A stretch of 32,000 nt of DNA from Geobacter metallireducens GS-15 (GTDB taxonomy: Bacteria > Desulfobacterota > Desulfuromonadia > Geobacterales > Geobacteraceae). Positions within the stretch are counted from its first letter, which is position 1, and each line of letters starts with the position of its first letter. The stretch lies in assembly GCF_000012925.1 (NCBI RefSeq), contig NC_007517.1:300001-332000 (forward strand). Direction: 5' to 3'. Of the stretch, positions 3,001 to 29,941 are shown piece by piece. Below the pieces are notes generated by a model. The model made no database searches, was not told the origin of the DNA, and saw nothing but the letters and a program-made list of their open reading frames with translations. The position numbers and the translations under genes are program-made.

Positions 3001-3001
3001 G

Positions 3002-10445: not shown

Positions 10446-10457
10446 GGAGGAGCAACC

Positions 10458-11936: not shown

Positions 11937-12032
11937 GCTCGTACAGTCGTGAGCGATGAATTCACGGTTTATGTGTTTGCAATACGGCCCATCCCTGGCC
12001 GCGTATCCCACACCACAAGGAGGAAGTAATCA

Positions 12033-12564: not shown

Positions 12565-12657
12565 TTCCACAGCTCCTTAATCATATGAGTCTCTTGTTGC
12601 TCTTGTCTGAATTGAGCGAATCCTACTTTAGACTGATAATCCTTGAAAGGAAGGAAC

Positions 12658-13446: not shown

Positions 13447-13474
13447 CAGACTGTGACACCGTAGAGGAAACTGC

Positions 13475-13954: not shown

Positions 13955-13986
13955 TTCAATCAGGTTTGCATCCATTGCTCATGAAG

Positions 13987-15339
13987 CCTTAACAGGCCGT
14001 TGAAAAACTCCTTCATTTCCAGGGCAATCCCCTTCAAGGAGATCATTTTAGGCCGATAGTTGCATTGATCTCGCCCTATTCGTTCTTTGAAACTTTGCTT
14101 TTTACCTTGATTTGGCCTTTTCGGGCGGGCTTTGCCACCAAGAGTCGCATTATTCCCCTGATTATGCCGTTTTCGTCCCGAGATTGCGCAGCCGGACCAG
14201 ATTGTATGCCGCAATGGCCATGGTGAAGTACCAGTCGACTTTCGCTATTCCCCGATGCCGGGTCTTGCGGAGATTGCCGACAGTCTTGAGCCAGCCGAAG
14301 GCCTCTTCGATCCGCTTGCGAATCCTCAGGCTGGTTTTGTAGCCTTCGTGGCGGGTAGTCCTGCCATCGATGGCTGAGCGGCGGTTAGCGGTGTTCTGAG
14401 CAATGTGAGGGGTTACCTTGAGTGCTCGCAGATCTTTGACGCACTCTTTGGTGTCGTAGCCCTTGTCGCCGCCCATGGTGATCCGCTTGTTACCGGCGAC
14501 GTCTGCGATCATCTCGACTGCGGTATCCCGCTCAGCGGTACCGGTTGCGTGGGTGATTCTGGCATCGACGATGATCCCGTTGCGGTTCTCCATGAGAGCG
14601 TGCCCGTGGTAACTGAGCTTCGCCTCTTTGCCCGAGCTTCTCCTGGCAATCCGCGCATCCGGATCGGTGGTGGAGGCATGGGTGTCGTTTTTGAGCTTTT
14701 CGCCGTGGAAATCACGCTCCGTGTTACGACCCACTGGAGGCTTTGGTCCATCCTTGGGCCGAAAGCTCTTGATAGAAGCCCACGCCTCGATGAGGGTGCC
14801 GTCAACGCTGAAGTGCTCGTCGGACAACAGCTTTGCCCTTCGGGCCTGCTCAACTACTTTTGCCAAGAGCAGCCGTGCCACGTCGGTATCGATCAACCGC
14901 TCCAGGTTGGTGGAAAACGAGGAGTGGTCCCAGACCTTCTCGTCCAGGGCCAATCCCACAAACCAGCGGAACAGGATGCTGTAGCTGATCTGCTCCACCA
15001 GCAGACGGTTACTCCTGATGGTGTACAGCGCCTGAAGCAGAAGTGCTTTAAGCAACTGCTCAGGAGGAATCGAGGGCCGGCCGGTGTGGGAGTACATGGC
15101 CTCGAATTGCGGGCTGAGCTCTGCAAGGGCCTTATCCACCATCGCCCTGATCGACCGCAAGGGGTGGTCCTTCGGGACGTACGACTCAGGGGAGAGATAA
15201 CAGAACAGAGCTTCGGTTTTTGTCTCGGCGCCGCGCATAACTTTTCTCCTGTAAATTCAGATTGTTACGCGTAAAAATATAGCACAGTTCGCTAACTTAT
15301 TGAATCAAAAAGGTTTAGTTTTTCAACAACCTGTTAAAG
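13987..15339 (-). mobile_element. IS5-family insertion sequence, about 1.35 kb
   Basis: The terminal inverted repeats match at 20 of 23 positions. The left repeat is 'ccttaacaggccgttgaaaaact' (13987-14009). The right repeat is 'agtttttcaacaacctgttaaag' (15317-15339). They enclose a single transposase ORF. The TTAA at 13989-13992 and 15334-15337 could instead be a 4-bp target duplication; TTAA is palindromic, so the two readings cannot be separated here. Confidence 0.8.
14162..15238 (-). CDS. IS5-family DDE transposase
   Basis: 358 aa. The N-terminus 'LFCYLSPESYVPKDHPLRSIRAMVD...GRPSIPPEQLLKALLLQALYTIRSNRLLVEQISYSILFRWFVGL' matches the InsH-type N-terminal domain. The C-terminus contains 'GDKGYD' and 'IEEAFGWLKTVGNLRKTRHRGIAKV', typical of DDE_Tnp_1/IS5 transposases. 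Confidence 0.9.
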   Translation of the reverse strand: MRGAETKTEALFCYLSPESYVPKDHPLRSIRAMVDKALAELSPQFEAMYSHTGRPSIPPEQLLKALLLQALYTIRSNRLLVEQISYSILFRWFVGLALDEKVWDHSSFSTNLERLIDTDVARLLLAKVVEQARRAKLLSDEHFSVDGTLIEAWASIKSFRPKDGPKPPVGRNTERDFHGEKLKNDTHASTTDPDARIARRSSGKEAKLSYHGHALMENRNGIIVDARITHATGTAERDTAVEMIADVAGNKRITMGGDKGYDTKECVKDLRALKVTPHIAQNTANRRSAIDGRTTRHEGYKTSLRIRKRIEEAFGWLKTVGNLRKTRHRGIAKVDWYFTMAIAAYNLVRLRNLGTKTA

Positions 15340-15399
15340 GGTCAGACCTACACATTTGACAATTACATAAGACTGTCAAATGTGTAAGTCTGTGACCCC
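15339..15399. repeat. Roughly 60-bp palindromic element abutting the right end of the IS
   Basis: 'gggtcagacctacacatttgaca' (15339-15361) faces 'tgtcaaatgtgtaagtctgtgacccc' (15374-15399). A 13-bp perfect core (tacacatttgaca / tgtcaaatgtgta) is extended by a bulged GC-rich outer stem. The loop is 12 nt. Confidence 0.7.
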
Positions 15400-15610
15400 A
15401 ATATTACCTTTCGTCGAGAAAATAGAAAGAATTAGCGTTAAAAGTCGGAGTAGTTAGGGGCATTGCCAGGCATGAGACAAGAAATAAGACAAGGTCAGAA
15501 CCCTTTGGTTTAAATAAATCGATCAATTCAATGCTTGGAGACGGGTAGGGTGGTCCAAGAGTTTAACCTGTATGAGTAATAGCCGGAATACGCGATACTC
15601 TGGGGGTCAC

Positions 15611-16501
15611 ATGAGATTTATAGGCAATCTAATAACGGTTATCAGTGTTTTATTTTTGGCAACAACGTCTTTTGGCGCTGACATCAGCGAATCGGACGTG
15701 AAAATATTCCTGAACGACTGGCTGGCCGCTCAGAACAAAGGTTCATATCCTGACTATGCCGCTCTCTATTCAGAGAGTTTTGTAGGCATTAAGCGATCAG
15801 GGAAAAGTATGCGCAAGTTTGACCATGATTCCTGGCTTAAAGATAGAAAAACGATGTTCAAGAAAAAAATGTTGGTTGCAGCAAATTCCCCGGAAATCAC
15901 GATTTCCGGAACGACAGCATTGGTAAAGTTTGAGCAGACGTGGGAATCAGGCACTTATAAAGACAAAGGCTATAAAGTGCTTGATTTGTCATTGGAGGAC
16001 GAAAAGCTAAAAATAGTTCGGGAAGAGATGCTGTTTTCAATAGTAGATACTAAATTTTCAAGTGCGTTCACTAGGTTTAATAAAGATTGTAAGAATAAAT
16101 TTAGCGACATTGAAGAGGGTCAAGACATGCCAATTATATGTAATGGTCCTTATAAATACAAAATAGAGATTAACTATAGCGCCTGTTGTGAGTATGTCCA
16201 GGTTTCAGATAATAAAAATTTTGTTTTGGATTTACCGGCTCAAATTATTTCTACTGTCACAAATAGAGTGTTGGAGTGGAGATTGGCAAACGGGAAACCG
16301 TTTGCAGTTATATTGAAATTGGATAAATACAAGGGAGACCTAGCGCTTGATGCAAAAAAAGTCAAAGAAGTATTGTTGATTAAAGGGCTTAAAAAATTCG
16401 AAGACATTAATTACGAGGTTGACATAAAGGGGCAATCAAATCCCAACCTAGAAGCTAGGAGTTTAGCAGATCAGAGTTACATGCGATTGTTACAAAAATA
16501 G
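15611..16501 (+). CDS. Secreted protein with an NTF2/SnoaL-like N-terminal domain; candidate immunity protein
   Basis: AT-rich gene. The signal peptide 'MRFIGNLITVISVLFLATTSFGA' begins at the ATG at 15611; an alternative ATG lies at 15572. 'IFLNDWLAAQNKGSYPDYAALYSESF...TALVKFEQTWESG' resembles the NTF2-like/DUF4440 fold pattern, judged by eye. Confidence 0.5.
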   Translation: MRFIGNLITVISVLFLATTSFGADISESDVKIFLNDWLAAQNKGSYPDYAALYSESFVGIKRSGKSMRKFDHDSWLKDRKTMFKKKMLVAANSPEITISGTTALVKFEQTWESGTYKDKGYKVLDLSLEDEKLKIVREEMLFSIVDTKFSSAFTRFNKDCKNKFSDIEEGQDMPIICNGPYKYKIEINYSACCEYVQVSDNKNFVLDLPAQIISTVTNRVLEWRLANGKPFAVILKLDKYKGDLALDAKKVKEVLLIKGLKKFEDINYEVDIKGQSNPNLEARSLADQSYMRLLQK

Positions 16502-16523
16502 CAGAAGGCTTGGGAGAATAATC

Positions 16524-17402
16524 ATGTATAGAGAAAAATCCAAGTATTCCAAGCTTGAAGGCCCTCTTTCTAATGTCAACTTAAATCTAACCAGCGCAAG
16601 AAATCAAATTTTATTTAGTATACTCGGTAAACCAAGAATTGATGGGATGTACGGAGAGAAAGATGGGCCGCTAAACAACCCTCAATTAGAAAAATTAATG
16701 GTGAGAGGCGTTGACGTCGGGCCATTCAAGGTCAATGGACTTGGTCTTGCGGTTGAAAGCCTAAAAACTGTAATGGCTGATATTAGTAAACAACACAAAG
16801 ACATTTATGACAGATTGAGCCAAGAAGGAATGCTTGTTGTACGCTACCAAAGGCCGACGGCAAAAAAACCAATTGGTTGTCCGAATAGGCCTATAAGCAA
16901 CCACTCATGGGGCACAGCAATAGACCTTAAGATTGATGGTTTGCTTGATGGTCGAGGTGATAATAAAAGTCAGCATGCGTTGAATGTAATAGCTCCGATT
17001 TTCAATAAGTACAAATGGTACTGGGGTGGAACATTTCCGACAGAAGACTCCATGCACTTCGAAGTCAGCAAAGAAAAGCTCCTCGAATGGCACAATGCCG
17101 GCTTGTTAGGACCGATTTCAAAACGCCTGCCAGAGGCCAAAATCCCCGAGACAACAAGGCCAGCAAGCACAAGCTCTTCTTCACGCCATCGTTCGATGTT
17201 TGATTGGTTGCAGAAGGGCGACAGGGGGCCAAAAGTAGTTCAACTGCAGAAAGCCTTAAAGTCCCGTGGCTACAACCTCAAATCCGACGGAGTTTTCGGG
17301 AAGAAAACAGAAACAGCTCTTCAGGACTTTCAACGCAAACAAGGGCTCCCCGACAATGGTATTGTCGGCCCCAAAGCAGCTGCCTATCTGTTGTTTTTCT
17401 GA
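16524..17402 (+). CDS. LAS-type zinc peptidase (M15 family) fused to a C-terminal PG_binding_1 domain; candidate T6SS cell-wall effector
   Basis: GGGAGA RBS. The zinc ligand motifs are 'SNHSWGTAIDL' (His127/Asp134) and 'WYWGG...EDSMHFE' (His178). The C-terminus, 'GDRGPKVVQLQKALKSRGYNLKSDGVFGKKTETALQDFQRKQGLPDNGIVGPKAAAYL', is a typical peptidoglycan-binding repeat. There is no signal peptide, and the gene lies immediately upstream of vgrG. Confidence 0.75.
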   Translation: MYREKSKYSKLEGPLSNVNLNLTSARNQILFSILGKPRIDGMYGEKDGPLNNPQLEKLMVRGVDVGPFKVNGLGLAVESLKTVMADISKQHKDIYDRLSQEGMLVVRYQRPTAKKPIGCPNRPISNHSWGTAIDLKIDGLLDGRGDNKSQHALNVIAPIFNKYKWYWGGTFPTEDSMHFEVSKEKLLEWHNAGLLGPISKRLPEAKIPETTRPASTSSSSRHRSMFDWLQKGDRGPKVVQLQKALKSRGYNLKSDGVFGKKTETALQDFQRKQGLPDNGIVGPKAAAYLLFF

Positions 17403-17491: not shown

Positions 17492-19621
17492 GTGGACATA
17501 CTCAACTTATTCAACAATTCTTCAAGTGCGACATTTCTGTTCGAGGTTTCCGGTTCTGCAGCCGATATGTCAGTCGTGAGTTTTACCGCTAACGAGTGGA
17601 TGTCCTTGCCATACTCGGTAAGCGTTGCCTTTGCCACTCCATACGGAATTGAATCCTTCGACGACATAATCGGTAGCGAAGCCCTGCTGACAATTATCAA
17701 CAAAGACTTGCTTGCCGGAGGAGAGGATCGCTACTTTCACGGGATTGTCAGACGACTTGAGCGTATTGGCTCAAGTAGCAACAATTATTGCCTCTATGAA
17801 GCCGAGATCGTTCCGGCTGTTTTTCAGCTCTCCCTGCGCAAAAACTCCAGAATTTTCCAGAACACTATGACCCAGGACATCGTCAAACAGCTTCTGGAGG
17901 AAAGTGGTATCACCTCGGACAGATACCGCTTTGCCCTCCAAAACAAGGAGCGGTTGCGGAAATTTTGCGTTCAATACAGGGAGACGGATCTCGATTTTGT
18001 AACTCGACTTCTCGAAGAAGAAGGGATGTTTTACTTTTTCGAGCATTATTCCGATAAGCATGTTCTTGTTATAAGTGACAGCAGTGTTGTCCACGTTCCA
18101 ATCAACGGTAATCCTTCGATTACCTTCAACTCAAACGGCGGCATGGTTGCTGAGACAGAAAGCATCTATGGCTTTACCTCGTCCCAAAGGATGACATCAG
18201 AGGTATTCGTTCATCGGAACTTTAATTTCAAGAATCCTTCAGTTGACATGACCGCGAAAGCATCCGACTCGCAGGAGTCAAAACGGGAAATTTATGAGTA
18301 TCCCGCTCTCCATGTTACGCAAGAGAGGGGTAGCGCACTTGCCAGAGCCCACAGGGAAGGACTCAAGACAATGCAGAAGCAGGGTCATGGCCAGAGTTCG
18401 TCCTGTCGACTGACGCCAGGGTACAACTTTGCTCTCATTGGCCACGATTCAGCGAGCCTGAACATTGAATATCTCATTGTGGACGTTTCTCATTCGGGCA
18501 CTCAACCCCAGTCGCTCGAGGAGATGTCCCAAGGGCCTTTCTCGTACGGCAACAGTTTTACTGTCATTCCGGCAACAACCCCGTTCCGCCCCACTGCCAC
18601 TCGACAAAAGCCCATAGTAAAAGGGATTCAGACCGCTATCGTGGTTGGTCCCAAGGGCGAAGAGATCTACGCCGATGAGTATGGTCGGATAAAGGTTCAG
18701 TTCCATTGGGACAGGGAAGGCCGCCGTGACGAGAAGAGTTCCTGCTGGCTCCGCATAGGGCAGACTTGGAGTGGAAACGGTTGGGGCATGATTAACATCC
18801 CCCGGATTGGAGACGAGGTACTGGTCGACTTTATCGATGGAGATCCGGATCGTCCCATTATCGTCGGCAGCGTCAACAACGCCGAATCTCCCGCACTCTT
18901 TTCCCTCCCCGCCAACAAAACCCAAAGCGGCATCCGTACCCGCAGCTATCCCAACGGCGGCCGCGACAACTACCACGAACTTCGCTTCGAAGACAAAAAG
19001 GGTAGCGAGGAGATCTACCTTCAGAGTGAGAAGGACTGGAACATCCTGGTTAAGAACGACAAGACCCAGAATGTTGAACACGACGAGGCTCTACATGTGG
19101 CAAACAACCGGCTGAAGACCGTCGGAGTTGACCAGATGGTGCAGGTGGGAGCCAACCACACCGAAATCATCGGTGCCAATAAGAGTATTTCCGTCGGCTC
19201 AAACAAGACCGAGACGGTGGGGCTCAACTCTGCGGAAACGGTTGGGCTTGCCAAGGAGCTGACCATCGGCGGACTTTATCAGGTCAGCGTCGGTGGGGTC
19301 ATGAACGAGACCGTCATCGGCGCCAAGGCCGAGGAAGTGGGGGTGACCAAGGCGGTGCTGGTCGGCGCTCACATGACCGAGAAGGTGGCCGGGAACCGCT
19401 CGCTCACCGTGGGGCAGAACCTCTCGGCAACGGTCAGCCAGAACACCACCGTGAAGGCCAAGGCGATAGTTCTGGAAGCCGATGACGAGATCATCTTCAA
19501 GACGGGCAGCTCTACCATCTCCCTGAAATCCAGCGGCGAGATTGTCGTTACGGGAGCGACCATAACCGAGAAAGCCAGCGGTGAAATCGTTATAAAGGGT
19601 GCCAGGACTTCGGTGAATTGA
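17492..19621 (+). CDS. vgrG: T6SS spike protein VgrG (TssI)
   Basis: GTG start preceded by CGGAGG. 709 aa. It has a gp27-like N-terminus ('VVSFTANEWMSLPYSVSVAF...YFHGIV'). The gp5 OB region is 'GRIKVQFHWDREG...SCWLRIGQTWSGNGWGMINIPRIGDEVLVDFIDGDPDRPIIVGSV'. A C-terminal beta-helix repeat region follows. Confidence 0.93.
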   Translation: MDILNLFNNSSSATFLFEVSGSAADMSVVSFTANEWMSLPYSVSVAFATPYGIESFDDIIGSEALLTIINKDLLAGGEDRYFHGIVRRLERIGSSSNNYCLYEAEIVPAVFQLSLRKNSRIFQNTMTQDIVKQLLEESGITSDRYRFALQNKERLRKFCVQYRETDLDFVTRLLEEEGMFYFFEHYSDKHVLVISDSSVVHVPINGNPSITFNSNGGMVAETESIYGFTSSQRMTSEVFVHRNFNFKNPSVDMTAKASDSQESKREIYEYPALHVTQERGSALARAHREGLKTMQKQGHGQSSSCRLTPGYNFALIGHDSASLNIEYLIVDVSHSGTQPQSLEEMSQGPFSYGNSFTVIPATTPFRPTATRQKPIVKGIQTAIVVGPKGEEIYADEYGRIKVQFHWDREGRRDEKSSCWLRIGQTWSGNGWGMINIPRIGDEVLVDFIDGDPDRPIIVGSVNNAESPALFSLPANKTQSGIRTRSYPNGGRDNYHELRFEDKKGSEEIYLQSEKDWNILVKNDKTQNVEHDEALHVANNRLKTVGVDQMVQVGANHTEIIGANKSISVGSNKTETVGLNSAETVGLAKELTIGGLYQVSVGGVMNETVIGAKAEEVGVTKAVLVGAHMTEKVAGNRSLTVGQNLSATVSQNTTVKAKAIVLEADDEIIFKTGSSTISLKSSGEIVVTGATITEKASGEIVIKGARTSVN

Positions 19622-19622
19622 A

Positions 19623-20759
19623 ATGGCGTCCCAGTCCCGCAACCAACCAGACAAAACGGTTACGGATCGTGTCGTCATAACCGGCATTGGAACTGTAACC
19701 TCCCTTGGCTGCTCCCAATGGAGCACAGCCCTCGCATTGCGTTTCAGGAAAAGCTCCTGGTGCGAGCACGAAACGGTGCTCGTGGCCGACGATCCGTACG
19801 GTGCCGTACTTCGTGGGGCAACTATCAGTCGCATCCCGGAAGAAATCATCTCTCCTGAACTGGACGGCGCCGAGCGAGCCGAGGCTCTATTTCATCCTGC
19901 ATTGAAAGAGTGCATGGCCGGGCTTTCAATCGCCGAGCAAAAACGACTTGTCTGCCGGATTGATAATTTTATCGATTATGAGCAGCATCTTTTCCCTTCT
20001 CTCTTGCAGGAGGCATTCCCCGGCCTCTCCCTTGAGCATGGCCAGAAGCCGATCGAGCTTGGCCGCTGCTCGCTTTTTGAACGGATCATCCAGGCCGGAG
20101 GTGAGCTTTTGGCGGGAAATGCTGAGCGTATTCTGGTCGGATGTGTCGATTCCCTCTGCGCTACTTCCTGGCTCATGTCAGTTTGTGATGAGGATGTGTT
20201 GAAAGACTCATTGACTCCCGAAGGGATCATTGCCGGAGAAGCGGCGGGAGCTGTTCTACTTGAACGGGAAGCCGCCGCGCGGCGGCGCAATGCGCCGGTT
20301 CTGGCCATTCTTTCGTCATGGGGACGGGGGACGGAGCCCAATCTGTGGCACGGTCCCATTCCCTCTACCGGGCGGGGACTCACCGACGCATTCCTTGAAG
20401 CGATTTCTCCTCACGGGGATGGAGGAAAAGGTGTCGTAACGGTCATCGCCGACCTTAACGGTGACCGGCACCGTGCCCTTGACTGGGCCTACACCGAGGG
20501 GCGGATTTTTATCGATGGTGATCGGGAGCCGGAACTGCGGCATCCCGCTTTCATCGCCGGGGATTGCGGCAAGGCCACGGGAGCGCTTCTCCTTGCCGAC
20601 GCCTTGGGGCGTTTCGCCTTCCATCCAGGGTTTCGGGGGACCCTTGCCCTCAGCACCTCCGATGAATCGGGCGCCAGACGGGTCATCTGCCTGGAGCACG
20701 GTGACCACGAAGAACGGAAGGGCTTTATTGAACAGCTCCGTGCTCAACTTGCCGGTTAA
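19623..20759 (+). CDS. Beta-ketoacyl-synthase-like (thiolase-fold) protein with an apparently divergent active site
   Basis: The ATG is 1 nt after the vgrG stop. The N-terminus 'DRVVITGIGTVTSLG' is KAS I/II-like. 'GRCSLFERIIQAGGELLAGNAERILVGCVDS' aligns by eye to the Cys-nucleophile region of FabF, placing it at Cys149. 'EGIIAGEAAGAVLLEREAAARRRNAPVLA' matches the 'DGFv.GEGAG.lvLE' segment. The positions expected to hold the two catalytic His read 'ADLNGD' and 'AGDCGKATG'. Confidence 0.7.
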   Translation: MASQSRNQPDKTVTDRVVITGIGTVTSLGCSQWSTALALRFRKSSWCEHETVLVADDPYGAVLRGATISRIPEEIISPELDGAERAEALFHPALKECMAGLSIAEQKRLVCRIDNFIDYEQHLFPSLLQEAFPGLSLEHGQKPIELGRCSLFERIIQAGGELLAGNAERILVGCVDSLCATSWLMSVCDEDVLKDSLTPEGIIAGEAAGAVLLEREAAARRRNAPVLAILSSWGRGTEPNLWHGPIPSTGRGLTDAFLEAISPHGDGGKGVVTVIADLNGDRHRALDWAYTEGRIFIDGDREPELRHPAFIAGDCGKATGALLLADALGRFAFHPGFRGTLALSTSDESGARRVICLEHGDHEERKGFIEQLRAQLAG

Positions 20760-20789
20760 TATCCACGTCCGGCACAAGGAGAAAGAAGC

Positions 20790-21503
20790 ATGTCGGCAAC
20801 CGTAATCGTCAATGGTCAGACCGTCGTCCACAAAGACAGCGGGGGCGTGCTCACCACTGGCCCCGATGTCTGCCTTACCCCCATGGGGCCTTCGGTAGTG
20901 CCGATTCCCTACACCAATATCGCGGTTTCCGCCGATACCAGCCAGGGGAGTACCAGCGTTGCCATGGACAGCAACCCCATCATGCTCAAGGGGTCGGTTT
21001 TCTCCAAAAGTACCGGCGACGAACCGGGGAAGGTCGGCGGTGTTTCCTCCGGGATTACCAAAGGGAAGGCCAAGTTTGTCAACTATTCCAGTGATGTCTT
21101 TGCCGATGGGAAGCCGGTCTGCCGACGGCTTGACCCCATGGTGAGCAACCTCTCGGCTGCGGGAAACACCCCACCCGCGCCACTGCAGCAGGGAAATGCG
21201 AGGGCACGGGGCAAGCAGGCGCAAGGCCATCTCTTGTCGGTCGCCTTGGTGTTTGAACACCCCGATGTGGTCACGGGCCGGACGACCCAGCCGCTCGTCG
21301 ATCTCAAATACTCATTGAACGGCCCCAAAACGATCACTGTAGCTAAGAGCGAACCCTACACTGGAATCCAGGAATACGTCCCGCAGGGTGGGTACGCCCT
21401 TGAATTTGACCGCAATGACCTCAAAGAGAAACTCACGGAAAGGTCAGTCAGTGAAAAACAATCATCCAAAGGGGCTGCGTTCAGGAATCACAAGACGAGC
21501 TGA
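20790..21503 (+). CDS. DUF4150 (PAAR-like) spike-tip protein with a ~100-aa C-terminal extension
   Basis: AAGGAG RBS. The sequence 'VIVNGQTVVHKDSGGVLTTGPDVCLTPMGPSVVPIPYTNIAVSADTSQGSTSVAMDSNPIMLKGSVFSKSTGDEPGKVGGVSSG...SSDVFADGKPVCRRLDPMVSN' fits the DUF4150/Tox-PAAR-like pattern. Confidence 0.8.
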   Translation: MSATVIVNGQTVVHKDSGGVLTTGPDVCLTPMGPSVVPIPYTNIAVSADTSQGSTSVAMDSNPIMLKGSVFSKSTGDEPGKVGGVSSGITKGKAKFVNYSSDVFADGKPVCRRLDPMVSNLSAAGNTPPAPLQQGNARARGKQAQGHLLSVALVFEHPDVVTGRTTQPLVDLKYSLNGPKTITVAKSEPYTGIQEYVPQGGYALEFDRNDLKEKLTERSVSEKQSSKGAAFRNHKTS

Positions 21504-21536
21504 TTCGGACACAATTGTTTGAACCAAGAGGGATCC

Positions 21537-22541
21537 ATGAAAACTGTATTCAGAAGAGCACTGCTTGTCATAACTGCAACTATACTAACCGTTTCCTTTA
21601 CCGCGTGCAAAGGGAGCGCTGGAAACGGATCAGATCACAAAGAACCCGGGAAAGGAGCACAAAAGGGGATGAATACCTATAACATCGGACGGTTCTCCAT
21701 TGATGTGCCGACAGAAATGAAAGAGGCGGGGCGAACCCATGAGTTCCGGTACGCGGAAATCGAGGAGTTTCTCTGGCCGAAGAACGTAGACAGGGAAGAG
21801 GCGCGCAAGGAAGCCTGGGCAAGGAGAATTGCGGAAATAAACAGCAATAGACCCCCGCGTGGAATAAAGAAAATCATTGTTGAAACCAAGGAAAGTCTGT
21901 CGGTAGGCAAGTGGTCCAAAGGAGTCTTGTATTACGGGAATGACATGAGTAGCAAAGACGGTTTCTGGATGATAATGGCAGATTATGGCCAAGTTGGCGC
22001 AATATTTATAATCAAAGGACTAATTGAATACGAGGAACCAATGTTTGATGACTTGCTCGAAATTGCCAGAAACTACGAGCCAATGAAACAAGATAAAGTC
22101 GATTCTTTTCATACTGCTTATGGAAACATAACACTTCCCTACCTCGAACAGGAATCCAGCTATGTTCGATTTGAAGGGCATCCTTTGGATTTGATGCTAG
22201 AAATAGAAATGACTGAAACCAATAATGTCGAAGAGTCAGGCCCTGTTGAGCGACTTGCTGCTGCAATATCAACAAACTTTGCACCGACGGTGGATGTAAA
22301 AAAAATTCGTGCCCGTAAGAAAAATGTGGCTGGACTTGAAGGGGAAGAGCTTGTCGTGAGGTTGACTGACGGCGGAGAATCGGAGTTACATTTCGGATGG
22401 GAATATGCCGGAAAACAAGACTCCGGGGAATACCCTCTGATTCAAATCGAGATGGAAAGTCCCGATGGGAGGGTTGAAGAGAAGTTGAAAGTTTGGGATG
22501 CGATTCTTGGCTCCATGAAATCGCTTTACAAAGGTAAGTAA
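21537..22541 (+). CDS. Lipoprotein; candidate immunity protein (Tli-type) for the downstream lipase
   Basis: GAGGG lies before the ATG at 21537. The signal 'MKTVFRRALLVITATILTVSFTAC' carries a lipobox. The gene is AT-rich, and its stop abuts the lipase start codon (TAAATG). Confidence 0.6.
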   Translation: MKTVFRRALLVITATILTVSFTACKGSAGNGSDHKEPGKGAQKGMNTYNIGRFSIDVPTEMKEAGRTHEFRYAEIEEFLWPKNVDREEARKEAWARRIAEINSNRPPRGIKKIIVETKESLSVGKWSKGVLYYGNDMSSKDGFWMIMADYGQVGAIFIIKGLIEYEEPMFDDLLEIARNYEPMKQDKVDSFHTAYGNITLPYLEQESSYVRFEGHPLDLMLEIEMTETNNVEESGPVERLAAAISTNFAPTVDVKKIRARKKNVAGLEGEELVVRLTDGGESELHFGWEYAGKQDSGEYPLIQIEMESPDGRVEEKLKVWDAILGSMKSLYKGK

Positions 22542-24599
22542 ATGTCAACAACCCTTAAGGTCAATCATGAGGAGTTAGTGCGACCGATTTCAGAGCTGAA
22601 AACTGATGCACGGCAGCGCATTGCTTTTGATCGCAAGGTCATTCCTATTATTTTCATCCCTGGCATCATGGGGAGCAGGCTAAAAAATCGTTTCAACAAA
22701 AGGATATGGGACCCTGACAGACCTGGTTGGATGCTTTGGAAATATGGAATATTCAAGGCTGCCACGGCTCAAACAAAAAAGGCCATGCTTGTTGGAAAGG
22801 AATTCTCTCCTGAATATCTGAGAGTAATCAATGACGATGGCAGACATAACAAAAAGTATTTTGCACACCAGTACGACACCCATCGGGCCGACCGCGGTTG
22901 GGGAGGGGTGTTGTGGAGCAGTTACGGGACGATCATCAAGGAACTGCAGACGCGCCAGTGGGACCGGACCGTAAACCTTTTTGCCGAATTTCCGGTTCAT
23001 GCTTTTGGCTACAACTGGACTGCTTCCAACCGGCTGGCCGGTGAAAGGCTCGCCGGCTACATCGATGCCGTGATAACCAAATATCGCGGCATGGGGCGTC
23101 AGTGTGAAAAAGTAATCCTCGTCACCCACTCCATGGGGGGCCTTGTAGCTCGGGCCGCCTGCAAACTAAGCGGCGCCGACAATAAGGTTCTCGGTGTCAT
23201 TCACGGCGTGCAGCCGGCCAACGGTTCACCGGCCGGCTATTGGCGGATGAAGGGGGGCTTCGAGCGGCCCCACACGATTCCCGAAACCGATCCGATGCAC
23301 TGGTTGAAAACGCCCAAGCGCGCTGCAGCTCACAAATGGAACACCCTGGTTACCAAGGGAGTTGAGTTCGCCCCTGGAATCAGTTTCGGCAAGGGCAATA
23401 TAACCGCATGGGTGCTCGGCACGGATGGGCGGGAAGTGACGGCACTACTCGGCAATATGCCCGGAGGCTTGCAGTTGCTGCCCAACAAGCGTTATCGAGA
23501 TAATCACGGCTGTGCCCAGTGGCTGGTGCTCAGAGACGAATCGGGAAAGCGTCGGAATCTCCCGAAGTCGGACCCATACAAGGAAATTTACCGAGCGAAA
23601 GATGTCTATTGGCGTCTTGTCAATCCGGAGTGGCTAAATCCTGGAGAGAAAGTCAAATCAAACAAAAAATACCGCAGTAAGACTTCCTGGATTAATTATG
23701 GTGAATATCTAACAGAGGCCGAATCCTTCCACGACGCCCTTGGCGGCAAGGTCCATCCCAACACCTACCAGTTTTACTCCACCGGAATAGCCAGCCCTGA
23801 TCGGGTGGTATTCACCCGGATGCGGGATACCCTGAGAAGCAAGGGAAAACGAATCATCGACATGGTTAAGGGAGATCTGCTCGGCAAGGGCGTCGGTGCG
23901 GCGGTCGATGCGGCCAGGGGAGAACTGACCAAGCCTGTGGCCGGCGCCGCCAAAACAACGCTGGCAAAGCCGTTTGCCGGTGGATCCTTGACAGAGTACG
24001 TACTGCACCCGAGCAAACTGGTGACCGCCGCGAAGGGACTTGCCGGCGCGGCAAAACAGGTGCCGGGCGCCATGGCCGAAGCGGCGAAGGGCCTTCCCAA
24101 CGCATTGCCCCGGATAGCCTCCGGCATGCCGAAAGCCATCGGCATCAATGCCGCCAAGAAGGCTGCCACTACCGCTATCGGTTTGGTGGTTCGTGATGAT
24201 AAGCGGTTCATCGATCGCGGCGGTTACCGCGACAAAGTCGATGAATCCGATCTCCTGGTGTTCAAGGAAAACGGTTCTCCGGCGGAGGTTGCATTCCTCA
24301 TTACCCTGGAAACCCCGGATGGTGCCGGCGACGGAACCGTCCCCGAGTCATCGGCGAAAGCACTCAAACTTGGAGCCAACAGGACGTTTGCCATCGGTGA
24401 CGTGGATGGCAATGAGGGGAAATTTGTCGAAAAGAAGGCCCCCCGCACAAAGCCCCAAATCCCGCCCGACTTCGATGAAGGGTGGTTTGACCGTGGACAT
24501 GAACCAATCTACAAGACACGAAGCGCCACCCACATAACCGTTACCGCCATTGAAAACATGGTGCGAGAGTTGGGCCGGAAAGCGCTTGGCCTCCACTAA
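22542..24599 (+). CDS. Alpha/beta-hydrolase lipase/phospholipase; candidate Tle-type T6SS effector
   Basis: 685 aa with no signal peptide. An oxyanion-type start 'IIFIPGIMGSRL' is followed by the nucleophile elbow 'VILVTHSMGGLVAR' (GxSxG, Ser197). 'GAGDGTVPESS' (Asp597) and 'FDRGHEPIY' (His653) sit at positions typical of the acid and base of lipase class-2/PGAP1-like enzymes. Confidence 0.75.
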   Translation: MSTTLKVNHEELVRPISELKTDARQRIAFDRKVIPIIFIPGIMGSRLKNRFNKRIWDPDRPGWMLWKYGIFKAATAQTKKAMLVGKEFSPEYLRVINDDGRHNKKYFAHQYDTHRADRGWGGVLWSSYGTIIKELQTRQWDRTVNLFAEFPVHAFGYNWTASNRLAGERLAGYIDAVITKYRGMGRQCEKVILVTHSMGGLVARAACKLSGADNKVLGVIHGVQPANGSPAGYWRMKGGFERPHTIPETDPMHWLKTPKRAAAHKWNTLVTKGVEFAPGISFGKGNITAWVLGTDGREVTALLGNMPGGLQLLPNKRYRDNHGCAQWLVLRDESGKRRNLPKSDPYKEIYRAKDVYWRLVNPEWLNPGEKVKSNKKYRSKTSWINYGEYLTEAESFHDALGGKVHPNTYQFYSTGIASPDRVVFTRMRDTLRSKGKRIIDMVKGDLLGKGVGAAVDAARGELTKPVAGAAKTTLAKPFAGGSLTEYVLHPSKLVTAAKGLAGAAKQVPGAMAEAAKGLPNALPRIASGMPKAIGINAAKKAATTAIGLVVRDDKRFIDRGGYRDKVDESDLLVFKENGSPAEVAFLITLETPDGAGDGTVPESSAKALKLGANRTFAIGDVDGNEGKFVEKKAPRTKPQIPPDFDEGWFDRGHEPIYKTRSATHITVTAIENMVRELGRKALGLH

Positions 24600-24647
24600 T
24601 CCGCGTTCACGAGGTAGTGGAAGTAATAACCGATAATTGGTGTTCGT

Positions 24648-25661
24648 ATGGACCTTCTCAATTCCACCCCCCTCATCGCCTCCCACAACATCCTTACCGA
24701 CCGCAACGGCGCTGAAACCCTCCTCGTCGTCGTCAAGGGAACCTGGCGCATCGGGAGGAATGGGGCACTCTCGATAGCTGGCGAGCAGGTGCCCATTCAA
24801 CTTGAGCCACGCTACCTCGGCGATCCCGCGGCATCGAGCCTCATCTACGATACGGACCTGATTCTGGAAAAGCCGGGCACCGACTGCATCCTTCTCGGTT
24901 ACGCCTGGGCGCCTAAGGTCGGAGTTGGCTCTGTGGACGTCACCTTCGGGGTGGGGCCATTGCGAAAGACTGTGCGGGTCTTCGGTGAGCGGATCTGGAT
25001 GAAGTGCCTGGGAATGGTCTCGATGTCAAAACCGGCGCCGTTCGAGAAGATTCCCCTCGTCTGGGAGCGGGCCTTTGGAGGGTCGGACACAAGCTGGCCC
25101 GAGCCGAAGGAGCACGAGTTCTGCTTGGAGAATCCGGTGGGGACGGGCCTTCTGGCACGAAAGACGAAGCTGGAGATCGACGGCTTGCGGCTGCCTAATC
25201 TGGAGGACCCGGCCCATCTCATCAAAAAGCCAACGGATCGTCCCAAACCGGTGGGGTTCGGACCGATCCCGCCCCATTGGTTCCCGCGGGCTGGTTATGC
25301 CGGCACCTATGACGACCAGTGGCGAAAGTATGTAAGCCCTCTGCCGCCTGACGACCTGGACCCGCGCTTCTATTTGGCCGCTGCGCCCGGTCTGACAACG
25401 GCCCGGCATCTTGCGGGCACGGAGCAGGTGCTTGTGGAAAACGCTTCCCGGGCCGGAAGGCTTCAGTTTCAGCTGCCTGGAGGAACGCCGAGCGTCTCGG
25501 TGCAGATCAGAGCGGCGGTCCTGGAACTGGAGATGCGGCTGGGCACGGTTATCGTCGAGCCGGATGAGGAACGGCTTGTCCTCGTCTGGCGCGGCCATCA
25601 GAACGTTCACGGAAAAATCCATGACGTGTACGGTGTCCGTGTCGGTTATGGTGGCCTGTAA
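24648..25661 (+). CDS. DUF2169-family T6SS adaptor/chaperone
   Basis: The sequence 'LLVVVKGTWRIGRNGALSIAGEQVPIQLEPRYLGDPAASSLIYDTDLILEKPGTDCILLGYAWAP' matches the DUF2169 N-terminal pattern. It co-occurs with a DUF4150 gene in the same operon. Confidence 0.8.
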   Translation: MDLLNSTPLIASHNILTDRNGAETLLVVVKGTWRIGRNGALSIAGEQVPIQLEPRYLGDPAASSLIYDTDLILEKPGTDCILLGYAWAPKVGVGSVDVTFGVGPLRKTVRVFGERIWMKCLGMVSMSKPAPFEKIPLVWERAFGGSDTSWPEPKEHEFCLENPVGTGLLARKTKLEIDGLRLPNLEDPAHLIKKPTDRPKPVGFGPIPPHWFPRAGYAGTYDDQWRKYVSPLPPDDLDPRFYLAAAPGLTTARHLAGTEQVLVENASRAGRLQFQLPGGTPSVSVQIRAAVLELEMRLGTVIVEPDEERLVLVWRGHQNVHGKIHDVYGVRVGYGGL

Positions 25662-25863: not shown

Positions 25864-26002
25864 GTGTCCAAAATCCTGGGTCGGAACCACAACCGGGATA
25901 AAAGGAGATCATGCGCCAGAAAAGAAAAATTCCCAGTACCGATCGATTGAGCGAAAGCAGAACGAGAACATTTTTTGAGATCAGGGGATGAAAGGAGTCA
26001 AA

Positions 26003-28753
26003 ATGAAGATTGTCAGTAAGACGTCAGCGCAGTTCCTTTTTGTCGCGGCTCTGGGAGCAGGCGCTCTGACAGCGTTTCAGCTGAAGGGGACGGAGGCGCT
26101 GGCCTATCCCGCGTACTTCACGACCAATTGTGCCGGCTGCCATGCGGCACCGGTGGCCGCTACCTGCAATGGATGCCACCACCACGGCCCCGTGTCGCTG
26201 AAAGGCGCCACCAACAAAACGTCCTATGCCCCCGGAGAGTCCGTATCGGTAACCATCAGCGGCGGCAGCCAGAGCGGCTGGGTCAGGGCCATCCTGTATG
26301 ACCAGAACAATCAGCAGGTGGCCATATCGAGCGGCAACGATAGCGGCATGGGGCACTCGACAACGTTCCCTGCGACCCTGAGTGCGCCGGCGCCGACTGT
26401 CCCGGGAACGTACACCTGGAAAGCTGCCTGGTTCGGCAACAGTTATGATTCTACCAATCCGACCGCGAGCGCCCATGGCGAGGTGTCGGTGAATACCAAT
26501 TCGTTCACCGTTGTGGCTCCGGTCGACACCACCGTCCCGGTCGTGAGCGCCTTTACCCTTCCGGCCACTTCTACGAGCCTCACCGTTGCGGTCAGCTCCT
26601 TCACCGCCACCGACAACGTGGGCGTCACCGGCTACCTGATCACCACGAGCGCCACCGCGCCCGCAGCAAGCGCCACCGGGTGGAGCGCCACCGCCCCCAC
26701 GAGCGTCACCGCTGTTGCCGGCAGCAACACCTTCTACGCCTGGGCTAAGGACGCAGCAGGGAACGTCTCCCTCGCCAAGAGCGCCAGCGTGACGGTCACC
26801 CTTCCTGACACCGTCGTCCCGGTCGTGAGCGCCTTCACGCTTCCGGCCACCGCCACGAGCCTTACCGTTGCGGTCAGCTCCTTCACCGCCACCGACAACG
26901 TGGGCGTCACCGGCTACCTGATCACCAAGAGCGCCACCGCGCCCGCAGCAAGCGCCACCGGGTGGACGGCCACCGCCCCCACGAGCGTGACCGCCGTGGC
27001 CGGCAGCAACACCTTTTACGCCTGGGCCAAGGACGCAGCGGGCAACGTCTCGCTCGCCAAGAGCGCCAGCGTCACGGTCACGCTCCCTGACGCCACCGTC
27101 CCGGTCGTGAGCGCCTTCACCCTGCCTGCGACCTCCACGAGCCTCACCGTTGCGGTCAGCTCCTTCACCGCCACCGACAACGTGGGCGTCACCGGCTACC
27201 TGATCACCAAGAGCGCCACCGCGCCCGCAGCAAGCGCCACCGGGTGGACGGCCACCGCCCCCACGAGCGTGACCGCCGTGGCCGGCAGCAACACCTTTTA
27301 CGCCTGGGCCAAGGACGCAGCAGGGAACGTCTCCCTCGCCAAGAGCGCCAGCGTGACGGTCACCCTTCCTGATGCTACCGCCCCGGTGGTGAGCGCCTTT
27401 ACCCTTCCGGCCACTTCTACGAGCCTCACCGTTGCGGTCAGCTCCTTCACCGCCACCGACAACGTCGGCGTCACCGGCTACCTGATCACCAAGAGCGCCA
27501 CCGCGCCCGCAGCAAGCGCCACCGGGTGGACGGCCACCGCCCCCACGAGCGTGACCGCCGTAGCCGGCAATAACACCTTCTACGCCTGGGCCAAGGACGC
27601 AGCAGGGAACGTCTCCCTCGCCAAGAGCGCCAGCGTGACGGTAACGCTCCCTGACACCACCGCCCCGGTGGTGAGCGCCTTTACCCTTCCGGCCACTTCT
27701 ACGAGCCTCACCGTTGCGGTCAGCTCCTTTACCGCCACCGACAACGTCGGCGTCACCGGTTACCTGATCACCACCAGCGCCACGGCACCGGCGGCATCCG
27801 CCACCGGCTGGAGCGCCACTGCCCCCACGAGCGTGACCGCCGTGGCCGGCAATAACACCTTCTACGCCTGGGCCAAGGATGCAGCAGGCAACGTCTCCCT
27901 CTCCAAGAGCGCCAGCGTGACGGTTACCGTCGCCCCTGCGGACCTCACCCTGACCATATCCGCCCTGGCCAACGGTTCGTACACCAACAAGGGAACCTTG
28001 AACATCAGCGGCGTCGCCATTGATGCCGCCGGCATCAAGTCCGTAACCGTCAACGGGCAGACCGTTACCGTCAATCCGGATGGTTCCTTCAGCTATGCAC
28101 TGTCACTCCAGTCCGGCGCCAACACCGTAACGGTCGTCGCCACCGACAATGCCGGCACCCAGAAGACCGATATCCGCACCATAACCTATGACCCGGCCGC
28201 GCCGGTTCTGACGGTCTCCGCGCCGGCCGACAACAGCACCACCACCCAGTCGTTCATTACCTTGAACGGCACCATCAGCGAAACCTCCACCGTCAGCGTC
28301 AGCGTCAACGGCAGCGCCCCGCAAACCGCTGCCATCAGCGGCAACTCGTATACCGCCACCGTTTATCTGGTGAAAGGTGTGAACACCATCAGCATCAGCG
28401 CCACCGACCTGGCCGGCAACATCACAACCGCCAAGAGGACGGTAACCTACAGCGGCGTGAGCAATAACCTCGCACTTGCGGTTACCTTCCCCAATCAGGA
28501 CATTACCACCAAGTATCCGTACCTGGTCCTCAAGGGGACGGTTGTCGACAACGAGAAAGTGGCCGTCAAGATTATCATGGACGGCAAGACCTACATCCCT
28601 GTAGTTGATGATGGCGTATTCATGCAGCGTCTCGTTTTCACCACTCCCAAGCTGTATGCCATTACCGTCATTGCCACGGATGCGGCAGGCAACAAGAGCA
28701 CGGTCACTCGTAACGTGATTTACCGTCCCGGGTATGACCACGATGATGATTAA
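26003..28753 (+). CDS. Secreted repeat protein with two N-terminal CxxCH motifs, five tandem Ig-like repeats and further Ig-like domains
   Basis: AGGAG lies 6 nt before the ATG at 26003; the track start at 25988 lies inside the RBS. The signal peptide is 'MKIVSKTSAQFLFVAALGAGALTAFQ'. The heme-type motifs are 'NCAGCH' and 'CNGCHH'. Five 94-aa repeats follow, then 'NISGVAIDAAGIKSVTVNGQTVTVNPDGSFSY'-type domains. Confidence 0.8.
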   Translation: MKIVSKTSAQFLFVAALGAGALTAFQLKGTEALAYPAYFTTNCAGCHAAPVAATCNGCHHHGPVSLKGATNKTSYAPGESVSVTISGGSQSGWVRAILYDQNNQQVAISSGNDSGMGHSTTFPATLSAPAPTVPGTYTWKAAWFGNSYDSTNPTASAHGEVSVNTNSFTVVAPVDTTVPVVSAFTLPATSTSLTVAVSSFTATDNVGVTGYLITTSATAPAASATGWSATAPTSVTAVAGSNTFYAWAKDAAGNVSLAKSASVTVTLPDTVVPVVSAFTLPATATSLTVAVSSFTATDNVGVTGYLITKSATAPAASATGWTATAPTSVTAVAGSNTFYAWAKDAAGNVSLAKSASVTVTLPDATVPVVSAFTLPATSTSLTVAVSSFTATDNVGVTGYLITKSATAPAASATGWTATAPTSVTAVAGSNTFYAWAKDAAGNVSLAKSASVTVTLPDATAPVVSAFTLPATSTSLTVAVSSFTATDNVGVTGYLITKSATAPAASATGWTATAPTSVTAVAGNNTFYAWAKDAAGNVSLAKSASVTVTLPDTTAPVVSAFTLPATSTSLTVAVSSFTATDNVGVTGYLITTSATAPAASATGWSATAPTSVTAVAGNNTFYAWAKDAAGNVSLSKSASVTVTVAPADLTLTISALANGSYTNKGTLNISGVAIDAAGIKSVTVNGQTVTVNPDGSFSYALSLQSGANTVTVVATDNAGTQKTDIRTITYDPAAPVLTVSAPADNSTTTQSFITLNGTISETSTVSVSVNGSAPQTAAISGNSYTATVYLVKGVNTISISATDLAGNITTAKRTVTYSGVSNNLALAVTFPNQDITTKYPYLVLKGTVVDNEKVAVKIIMDGKTYIPVVDDGVFMQRLVFTTPKLYAITVIATDAAGNKSTVTRNVIYRPGYDHDDD
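26534..27943 (+). repeat. Five in-frame tandem repeats of 282 bp (94 aa), near-identical at the DNA level
   Basis: Units start at 26534, 26816, 27098, 27380 and 27662. Each begins 'g(t/c)cccggt(c/g)gtgagcgcc' and encodes '(V/A)PVVSAFTLPAT(S/A)TSLTVAVSSFTATDNVGVTGYLIT(T/K)SATAPAASATGW(S/T)ATAPTSVTAVAG(S/N)NTFYAWAKDAAGNVSL(A/S)KSASVTVT'. Confidence 0.9.
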
Positions 28754-28809: not shown

Positions 28810-28860
28810 CTTTCGCTGGCATGACGGATAAGCGACACGCCGGGGCGTCCTCATGCCGCG

Positions 28861-29847
28861 TCAGTGGCCCCGTTCTTCCTCTCTCATCTGGCGCTGTTCC
28901 TGCTGTTGACCTCGTTTTTGCGGTTGCTCCCGGTTTTGCATTCTTTGTTCTTGAGGCCTGGGCGTCTCGCGCTGGATATCCCTCCGCTCCTGGCGCTGCT
29001 GGGGAGGACGTTGCGAGGGACCGCCCTGCTGCTCCGGTGCCCTCATCCGACGCTCTTCCTGCCGTCGTTCTCTCTGGCCGGGAACCGGCGCACTTTGCTC
29101 TCTCTGCTGTGCCGGGGCTCTCATCCGACGCTCTTCCTGTTTTCCCCGTTGCACGGGCAAAGTTTCTCTCGGGCCTCTTTGCTGCTCCGGGGCTCTCATG
29201 CGGCGCTCTTCCCGCTGTTCCCGCTGGGAAGTCGCGGGTGCCCCCTTCTCTCCCCGAGGCTGGAAGTGCTGGCGGACCGCCTTGTCGCGCGGCTGGTAAC
29301 GATAATGCTCGCGGCGTATCGCCTGCTGCTGCTCCACCGTGGGATACCGATCTCCCGAATACTGCCGCTGGTAGACAGGCAGCGGGGCGCGGGGAGGAGC
29401 CGAGCCACGTTTCCACTTGTTCCACCCTCTTCGCTCATGCTCCCATTCGCGTCCCCAGTGCTCGCCCCAGCGGGGAGGGGCATCCGGCCGCCACCTGTGA
29501 AAGTACGGTGGGGGATGCCGGTAGTAGCGCACGGGGATACGGAGGATGTAGACCGGAACCACGTCCGGTTCCACGATCCACCAGGGGCCGTTGTACCAGT
29601 AACTGGCGTACCAGTCGTCGTCGTAGTAAATCCAATACAGGCCGTCATAGAAGAAATAGTTGGCAGCCACCCGCGGCGCGTAATAGACCGGGTAGCCCGG
29701 CACCGGGACCAGGTCCGGGTAGAGCGGCAGGTTGATCCCGATGCTTACATGGGGCAAGCCGATGCCGATGCTCACCTGGGCCGGGACCGAAGTCACCGAG
29801 CACAACAGCATCCACAGTAAAACGACTCCGCAGCAAATTTTCCGCAT
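28861..29847 (-). CDS. Secreted protein with an aromatic-rich N-terminal domain and an Arg/Gln/Glu-rich repeat tail
   Basis: GGAGGA precedes the ATG at 29847. The signal peptide is 'MRKICCGVVLLWMLLCSVTSVPAQV'. It is followed by 'YYAPRVAANYFFYDGLYWIYYDDDWYASYWYNGPWWIV' and then three 'EERRMRAP(E/A)QQ' units. Alternative frames over this span are Pro/Ala/Arg-rich with no signal peptide. Confidence 0.6.
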   Translation of the reverse strand: MRKICCGVVLLWMLLCSVTSVPAQVSIGIGLPHVSIGINLPLYPDLVPVPGYPVYYAPRVAANYFFYDGLYWIYYDDDWYASYWYNGPWWIVEPDVVPVYILRIPVRYYRHPPPYFHRWRPDAPPRWGEHWGREWEHERRGWNKWKRGSAPPRAPLPVYQRQYSGDRYPTVEQQQAIRREHYRYQPRDKAVRQHFQPRGEKGAPATSQREQREERRMRAPEQQRGPRETLPVQRGKQEERRMRAPAQQREQSAPVPGQRERRQEERRMRAPEQQGGPSQRPPQQRQERRDIQRETPRPQEQRMQNREQPQKRGQQQEQRQMREEERGH

Positions 29848-29941
29848 ATCGTCCTCCATTTCGTCTGAAGCACAACAAGTTTATCCCCTGTTGCCAAGCT
29901 GTCAAACAGGACCTTTAGGCGGAAAACATCAGGTAACACAA

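Follow-up and report, generated by a model that had tools for sequence, protein, structure and literature searches.

A predicted spike-loading module with a stand-alone PIPY cone and a separate Tle4 lipase in the type VI secretion system of Geobacter metallireducens

Introduction

How can a toxin be loaded on a secretion spike when it is encoded apart from the tip protein of that spike? We consider this question for six genes, Gmet_0286 to Gmet_0291, of the Geobacter metallireducens GS-15 type VI secretion system (T6SS). The stretch of DNA analysed here (the window) is 32,000 nucleotides long and covers positions 300,001 to 332,000 of the chromosome (NC_007517.1, 3,997,420 bp); all coordinates below are those of the window. 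Its six plus-strand open reading frames (ORFs) encode, in order, a VgrG spike, a ketoacyl-synthase (KAS)-like protein, a stand-alone DUF4150 protein, a lipoprotein, a lipase and a DUF2169 protein. How a cargo effector comes to ride on one VgrG/PAAR tip and not another is understood only in part, and this locus joins two known chaperones of the DUF4150 (now PIPY) cone but lacks the VgrG mimic with which the current classification pairs them. Since the T6SS is strongly on in G. metallireducens during syntrophic electron transfer and impairs that partnership (PMC10580878), the identity of the toxin that it fires is also ecologically relevant.

The reading that we favor, at a probability of about 0.65, is that the operon is a spike-loading module. 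The VgrG trimer would be capped by the cone of the stand-alone PIPY protein, and before firing the DUF2169 protein (TvpA) and a catalytically dead protein of the KAS fold (TvpD) would act as chaperones that shield the hydrophobic cone and keep it secretion-competent. The lipase, a Tle4, would travel as a non-covalent cargo, most likely docked on a beta module at the C-terminus of the PIPY protein. It is predicted to be injected into the periplasm of neighboring cells and to attack their membrane phospholipids, and the immunity lipoprotein, a Tli4, is predicted to neutralise it in the producer's own periplasm and in that of its kin.

The gene content and the general reading of the locus are already in the literature, and almost every part belongs to a described family. 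The T6SS table of Smith et al. 2023 (PMC10580878) lists these Geobacter genes, labelling Gmet_0287 as "tse2, fatty acid metabolism protein", Gmet_0288 as a PAAR-like DUF4150 protein, Gmet_0290 as "tse3, PGAP1 phospholipase" and Gmet_0291 as a DUF2169 chaperone. The occurrence of DUF2169 genes is strictly tied to that of vgrG and DUF4150 genes, and the DUF4150 domain has been renamed the PIPY domain (Sachar et al. 2025, PMC11883445). Genetic and biochemical work in Pseudomonas aeruginosa and Vibrio parahaemolyticus has established that a functional PIPY-VgrG spike needs DUF2169, and the structure of a DUF2169 protein has been solved (PMC11883445).

The operon and its products

The six genes follow one another closely on the plus strand: VgrG (Gmet_0286, 709 aa) at 17492 to 19621, the KAS-like protein (Gmet_0287, 378 aa) at 19623 to 20759, the PIPY protein (Gmet_0288, 237 aa) at 20790 to 21503, the lipoprotein (Gmet_0289, 334 aa) at 21537 to 22541, the lipase (Gmet_0290, 685 aa) at 22542 to 24599 and the DUF2169 protein (Gmet_0291, 337 aa) at 24648 to 25661. 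By exact-sequence look-up their products are identical to ABB30531-ABB30536. A preliminary description of this DNA had read it as a tightly packed, same-strand vgrG cargo operon of six genes with gaps of 1, 30, 33, 0 and 48 nt. These are exactly the gaps between the ORF coordinates, and the family of every product is borne out by matches to hidden Markov models (HMMs) or to sequences in the Protein Data Bank (PDB). Judged from its sequence, the set is a real operon and probably a spike-loading module of the G. metallireducens T6SS.

Ribosome-binding sites (GGAGG, AAGGAG and GAGGG) lie 5' of the VgrG gene, the PIPY gene and the ATG of the lipoprotein gene, respectively. For the lipoprotein the ATG at 21537, which follows the GAGGG site, agrees with the database protein, and an in-frame TTG at 21519 is the alternative. 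A promoter and terminator scan of 12.4 to 26.2 kb returned none that exceeded the shuffled expectation and gave no clear boundaries of the operon. In published RNA-seq of co-cultures that grow by direct interspecies electron transfer (DIET), vgrG is up 45-fold, Gmet_0287 5-fold, Gmet_0288 127-fold and Gmet_0290 8-fold, alongside the T6SS core genes (PMC10580878).

The first product is a VgrG by its matches to Phage_GPD (9e-80), Phage_base_V, Gp5_trimer_C and TIGR03361 (646 bits). Its C-terminus is a beta-prism, to which Pfam and NCBIfam searches add no effector or adaptor domain.

The PIPY protein and its C-terminal module

We turn to the protein that would form the tip. The preliminary description had made its reading depend on HMM support for the DUF4150 assignment, and Gmet_0288 gives that support with a PF13665 match of 1.5e-37 over residues 21-121. 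The PIPY domain takes up residues 1-137, with the PIPY motif at 38-41, and resembles the N-terminus of PDB 8QJC (5e-14). In a family alignment of 26 sequences P38, P40 and Y41 never vary and I39 hardly does. With the canonical PAAR model the score is 19 bits, where the cut-off is 124, and the protein is of the PIPY type.

Beyond the cone, the C-terminal ~100 residues of Gmet_0288 contain no toxin domain and have no Pfam match. The toxin is a different gene, the lipase Gmet_0290, as had been proposed before; because toxin and PAAR-like cone are separate genes, the loading has to be non-covalent. Within the C-terminal region, residues ~145-215 form a module that is conserved across the 26 aligned family members and is common to hundreds of PIPY proteins of 214-237 residues in Geobacteraceae, Smithellaceae and related lineages (653 matches). 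In the AlphaFold2 (AF2) model this module is a small all-beta domain with a predicted local distance difference test score (pLDDT) of 74-85. We refer to this segment of ~75 residues (21204 to 21431, plus strand) as PIPYc, and propose it, from the co-occurrence described below, as the dock of Tle4.

Related loci and the loading of the lipase

Does the module keep company with the lipase elsewhere? The loci surveyed are eight metagenome contigs, obtained via homologues, and 28 genome loci, obtained via the PIPY alignment, annotated with HMMs built from the window and its relatives. The six-gene block is conserved in Geobacter and Smithella-like genomes, and the order VgrG-KAS-PIPY-Tli4-Tle4(-Tli4)-DUF2169, without DUF6484, recurs in loci L001-L004, L009-L011, L013, L014 and L018. 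Other orders are VgrG-DUF6484-PIPY-Tle4-Tli4 (L024 and L030; L008, with eight Tli4 segments; L025, with KAS and DUF2169 further downstream), DUF2169-PIPY(-Tle4) (L026, L027, L029), and VgrG-Tli4-Tle4-KAS-PIPY-DUF2169 (L045). In G. sulfurreducens (L005, L022) the arrangement is tssA-KAS-PIPY-Tli4-Tle4-tssB without DUF2169, and L031 is an orphan PIPY-Tle4-Tli4 set.

The constant unit is the PIPY protein with the module, Tle4 and Tli4. A PIPY gene with the module is adjoined by Tle4 and/or Tli4 in 27 of the 27 evaluable loci (those with at least 300 nt of sequence downstream of the PIPY gene), and a PIPY gene without it in none of four loci, which are gammaproteobacterial. The other components vary more: of the 14 loci that extend for 6 kb or more on each side, 12 have KAS, nine DUF2169, four DUF6484 and 12 VgrG. 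From the side of the lipase, a metagenome scan with a Tle4 alignment finds the module in 16 of 23 evaluable loci of close Tle4 proteins versus 2 of 15 loci of distant ones. Solely from this co-occurrence we infer that the C-terminal module most likely docks the lipase on the spike. The preliminary description had left the loading to DUF4150, DUF2169 and/or the KAS-like protein; the comparative data favor the first of these, through its C-terminal module, and do not favor the other two. If the module is indeed the lipase dock, it would give a simple, testable rule for the loading of Tle4 and a marker with which such effectors can be found.

The phospholipase Tle1 of enteroaggregative Escherichia coli (EAEC) loads onto its VgrG. 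By this precedent Tle4 could load directly on the beta-prism of VgrG, while the PIPY protein does no more than sharpen the tip, and its module contacts TvpD or DUF2169 or fills the baseplate cavity. Direct binding of Tle4 to VgrG is the main rival of our reading and, given the Tle1 precedent and the loci of distant Tle4 proteins, a plausible one, although we consider it the less probable by a good measure, at something over one chance in five. The distant Tle4 genes that lie immediately 3' of vgrG, with no PIPY protein (L083-L086, L088, L090), speak for it, as does the resemblance of this layout to vgrG2a-tle4-tli4 of P. aeruginosa (PMC7376260). A role of the module as a filler would agree with the suggestion of Monlezun et al. 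that small PAAR proteins need added mass in the baseplate cavity (PMC13373197). On the other side, the Gmet_0286 VgrG has no C-terminal adaptor domain past the prism, trios of PIPY (with the module), Tle4 and Tli4 are kept where vgrG is not adjacent (L005, L022, L031), and PIPY proteins that do not stand beside Tle4 lack the module.

We retain the module as the preferred dock, and weigh here the points that count against the model as a whole. Seven of the 23 evaluable loci of close Tle4 proteins have no PIPY module nearby; one of these, L082, has vgrG immediately upstream, and its contig stops just after tle4. Several distant Tle4 genes directly follow vgrG, as in P. aeruginosa. Such loci mean that Tle4 can use other routes, possibly direct binding to VgrG. 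The loci with the module are phylogenetically related and all come from a single PIPY subfamily; the independent events are therefore fewer than 27 of 27 suggests. The AF2 model of the full PIPY protein is poor (pLDDT 49.7, with the PIPY domain itself below 50), and the module has no relative in Pfam, among PDB sequences or by Foldseek, where the best hit against the PDB has E = 0.8; a transthyretin-like fold, which had been guessed for it, finds no support in that Foldseek search. Gmet_0291 is not differentially expressed in the DIET RNA-seq set (PMC10580878). The chaperone role of TvpD, even in P. aeruginosa, comes from AlphaFold models and gene context, and the absence of a TvpC applies to the 32-kb window.

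The DUF2169 and KAS-like proteins

Gmet_0291 is a full-length DUF2169 protein (PF09937, 2.6e-103), an assignment made earlier from the letters and upheld by this match, and it aligns over residues 15-305 with the DUF2169 crystal structure PDB 8VTH (9e-25). The linkage of DUF2169 to a vgrG and a DUF4150-type gene, by which a Tvp accessory system is recognised, is found here within one operon. The Agrobacterium tumefaciens precedent that the preliminary description had cited, in which Atu3641 is needed to load Tde2 onto VgrG2, was quoted correctly. One relative places this gene differently: in L004 (14779-19038) DUF2169 lies between tssF and tssE/tssG, amid baseplate genes and not at the end of an effector operon.

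The KAS-like protein Gmet_0287 has no match in a Pfam search, and its family is found only via NCBIfam, where NF004798/PRK06147 gives 387 bits against a curated cut-off of 342. Liu et al. 2020 proposed this family from gene context as a new T6SS adaptor; of 407 cases, 52% have a PAAR gene as the first gene downstream, and Tox-GHH2 and AHH nucleases make up most of the linked toxins (PMC7714669). Monlezun et al. 2026 gave the name TvpD to the PRK06147 protein PA0098 and modelled it, next to TvpA, around the cone of the PAAR-like protein (PMC13373197). It is from such published work on homologues that we infer the chaperone roles of both DUF2169 and TvpD.

Alternatively, one or both of these proteins could be adaptors specific to Tle4 that connect the lipase with the spike, as had been allowed for at the outset. 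Both are in the operon, and both have been classed as "adaptors" by gene context (PMC7714669). Elsewhere, however, the two families accompany nuclease-fused PIPY proteins, mainly with Tox-GHH2 and AHH (PMC7714669), and so they track the PIPY cone and not the toxin. There are also Tle4 modules without DUF2169 within 10 kb (L005, L008, L022) or without KAS (L008, L031), and the published structures and models put DUF2169 on the PIPY cone (PMC11883445, PMC13373197). We regard such an adaptor role as improbable, and keep the two proteins as probable chaperones of the cone.

Could the KAS-like protein instead be an active enzyme of fatty acid or lipid metabolism, or a secreted effector, as the label tse2 implies? 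It has the thiolase/KAS fold, it is annotated as a 3-oxoacyl-ACP synthase, and it is listed among the effectors (PMC10580878). Its AF2 model, made with 27 homologues, is of good quality (pLDDT 86.6, predicted TM-score 0.89), and the closest PDB structures are FabF enzymes and ketosynthase-chain length factor (KS-CLF) pairs, with TM-scores of 0.70-0.75 at 12-18% identity. In the profile-to-FabF alignment, however, His303 falls on A276/D277, His340 on D314 and Lys335 on A309, so that both catalytic histidines and the lysine are gone. C149, at the head of the helix equivalent to that of the catalytic cysteine, is G, S, A, T or H in seven of 27 relatives, and the invariant positions of the family lie elsewhere (D176, S177, D277, N279, G280). 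The Cys-His-His triad and lysine of a beta-ketoacyl-ACP synthase are thus missing from Gmet_0287, which by alignment and model is a pseudoenzyme with a FabF-like fold. Its likeness to FabF/FabB is one of thiolase fold, in a T6SS context and not in fatty-acid synthesis, and its likeness to the non-catalytic CLF is likewise confined to the fold. Moreover, it has no cognate immunity gene, and in hundreds of genomes its family is linked to PAAR-like genes (PMC7714669). We reject an active enzyme or effector on the grounds of the catalytic residues and consider this reading very improbable. The loss of these residues fits a structural chaperone role and argues against the published labelling as a "fatty acid metabolism" effector, which this analysis corrects for Gmet_0287 and its relatives.

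The missing TvpC and comparison with known systems

Monlezun et al. 2026 distinguish three classes of Tvp accessory complexes around DUF2169 (PMC13373197). In class II, represented by PA0095-PA0099 of P. aeruginosa, a DUF6484 protein (TvpC) mimics the VgrG tip in a pre-complex, and TvpD is present; the cones of classes I and II are stated to carry fused toxins, and in class III Paar1 of Serratia stands alone and works with a cargo effector that is a separate protein and depends on VgrG1 (PMC13373197). The same P. aeruginosa layout appears as "synteny type A", which comprises VgrG, DUF6484, DUF2169, a thiolase-like gene, DUF4150 and an armadillo-like gene (PMC11883445).

No ORF of the window has a Pfam match to DUF6484. 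As a check for a hidden gene, an HMM built in this analysis from the DUF6484 proteins of three relatives was run against the six frames of the window, and it finds only VgrG, in the OB fold and the last ~67 residues (28.5 bits), as is expected if TvpC imitates the VgrG tip. With no TvpC encoded in the window, direct assembly of the cone on VgrG, as in class I and with no mimic in between, is probable.

The P. aeruginosa vgrG1b cluster PA0095-PA0099 shares VgrG, TvpA, TvpD and a DUF4150 cone with the Geobacter operon, and in both the KAS-like gene is directly 5' of the PIPY gene. The PRK06147/thiolase-like TvpD of class II and type A is thus present, but within the window there is no DUF6484 gene next to vgrG, no fusion of a PAAR-like domain with a toxin, and no armadillo-like gene (Pfam finds no HEAT/ARM protein). 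The Geobacter operon differs further in that the KAS-like gene directly follows vgrG, that DUF2169 comes last and not before the KAS-like gene, and that the PIPY protein is unfused, with separate Tle4 and Tli4 genes inserted between it and DUF2169. The class I system of A. tumefaciens, VgrG2-Tap2(Atu3641)-Tde2, is similar in that DUF2169 chaperones the DUF4150 cone directly on VgrG without a TvpC pre-complex, but it lacks TvpD and has the Tde2 DNase fused to its cone. The class III VgrG1-Paar1 system of Serratia marcescens provides a precedent in which the DUF4150 protein is stand-alone and the cargo effector is separate, depends on VgrG and targets membranes; it differs by its TvpAB/TvpB pentapeptide-repeat proteins, a long DUF3540 TvpC, the lack of PRK06147 and another effector family, and a C-terminal module like that of Geobacter is not reported for Paar1.

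The locus belongs to a described kind of system and departs from its published classes in two respects: it has TvpA and TvpD but no TvpC in the window, and its toxin-less PIPY cone carries an uncharacterised, Tle4-linked module. We suggest tentatively, and with well under even odds, that Geobacter, Smithella and their relatives hold a fourth kind of Tvp system, in which TvpA and TvpD work without a TvpC pre-complex and the built-in, previously undescribed beta domain of the PIPY protein is a dedicated Tle4 dock. If this is true, the PAAR-like protein would bring its own "adaptor in cis" in the form of this domain, which would explain the match of a cargo lipase to a particular spike.

The lipase and its immunity protein

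Gmet_0290 aligns with P. aeruginosa Tle4 (PDB 4R1D_A, 4.5e-34) in three segments and matches a PGAP1-like Pfam family (4.6e-08). Ser197, the serine named earlier, lies in a Tle4-type THSMG nucleophile motif, and the proposed Ser-Asp-His lipase is sustained by a candidate triad of S197, D597 (GDGTVP) and H653 (DRGHEP), motifs that are conserved in the homologues. The protein thus has the PGAP1-like alpha/beta hydrolase, the TxSxG motif and the Ser-Asp-His residues of a Tle4. Residues ~440-545 (23860-24180) are a variable Ala/Gly/Lys-rich low-complexity insert, which has no match in a Pfam search; the length of this region differs greatly among homologues (538-744 aa in total).

Gmet_0289 has a signal peptide and a lipobox (...SFTAC, Cys24), a Tli4_C domain (PF18426, 4.9e-13) and weak matches to 4R1D_B and 5H7Y at about 0.008-0.009; NCBI names it "T6SS immunity protein Tli4 family". 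With the Tli4_C domain, the export signal and a gene that adjoins tle4 at 0 nt, the lipoprotein that had been called immunity-like is placed in the Tli4 family. That the immunity gene precedes the effector, as had been remarked, is true of the G. metallireducens locus, but this order is not fixed among the relatives. In one relative (L008, 12415-19736, and L111) eight consecutive Tli4-family gene segments follow one tle4, which looks like an immunity-gene array, possibly of orphan immunities against the Tle4 toxins of neighbors.

The same lipase and immunity families are found in a vgrG island of P. aeruginosa (Tle4/Tli4, or TplE/TplEi; PA1510/PA1509; PDB 4R1D). That island differs from the Geobacter operon in its canonical PAAR (PA1508) and in having neither DUF2169 nor PRK06147, and the Geobacter lipase differs from that of P. 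aeruginosa by the extra insert and by low identity outside the core.

Genomic neighborhood

Upstream of the operon, the T6SS core genes tssL, tssM, tagF-tssA, tssB, tssC and hcp occupy 2290 to 12518 on the plus strand (Pfam DotU, IcmF-related_N, TagF_N/ImpA_N/VasJ, VipA, VipB and T6SS_HCP). Between the hcp-proximal and the effector genes is an IS5-family element (13982-15344) with 28-nt imperfect inverted repeats at 13982-14009 and 15317-15344 and a minus-strand transposase at 14162-15238 (NF033581, 293 bits). One may ask whether the module is a decaying remnant, a reading to which this insertion and the incomplete core set of the window (tssE/F/G/K/J and clpV are elsewhere in the genome) would lend some color. 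The six ORFs, however, are intact and conserved, their strong induction goes along with that of the distal core genes, and a phenotype is known for an hcp mutant (PMC10580878), so that we give decay the least credence of all the explanations considered. The genes downstream of the element are still induced in the published RNA-seq (PMC10580878), and the IS5 may therefore supply or separate promoters.

The gene at 6499-8880 encodes one protein of 793 aa with TagF_N, ImpA_N and VasJ, i.e., a TagF-TssA fusion, which G. sulfurreducens and a Smithellaceae relative share (L005, L006). Four small ORFs at 8902-9872 and 12643-13954, Gmet_0276/0277 in the gap between tagF-tssA and tssB and Gmet_0281/0282 after hcp, match nothing in Pfam or NCBIfam and are without a homologue in the compared loci. 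The idea that they are relics of a KAS-PIPY-Tli4-Tle4 module is rejected, as the HMMs built in this analysis give no match to them. In G. sulfurreducens the tssA-tssB gap holds KAS-PIPY-Tli4-Tle4 instead, and the positions of the small ORFs therefore look like hot spots of variable cargo.

Two further genes lie at 15572 to 17402 on the plus strand, 89 nt upstream of vgrG. By Pfam Gmet_0284 encodes an NTF2-like secreted protein and Gmet_0285 an M15 peptidase that carries PG_binding_1, and their GC content is 38-45% versus ~62% in the core genes. They are listed as tsi1/tse1 (PMC10580878) and are probably a second effector/immunity pair, a peptidoglycan hydrolase with the immunity gene first. 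No homologue of either is found in the 116 loci compared, the closest relative L009 included.

Just downstream of the operon, at 25988-28753, is a secreted protein of 921 aa that appears unrelated to it. CxxCH motifs near the N-terminus are followed by five near-identical tandem repeats of 282 nt (94 aa; 26525-27928, 93% matches) and then by Ig-like and Glucodextran_B domains. The adjacent stretch at 28821-29859 is GC-rich and has long overlapping ORFs on both strands, with those of the plus strand at 28821-29735 and 28864-29820. Its minus-strand ORF (332 aa), which has no family match, combines a signal-like N-terminus with repeated "EERRMRAPEQQ" units.

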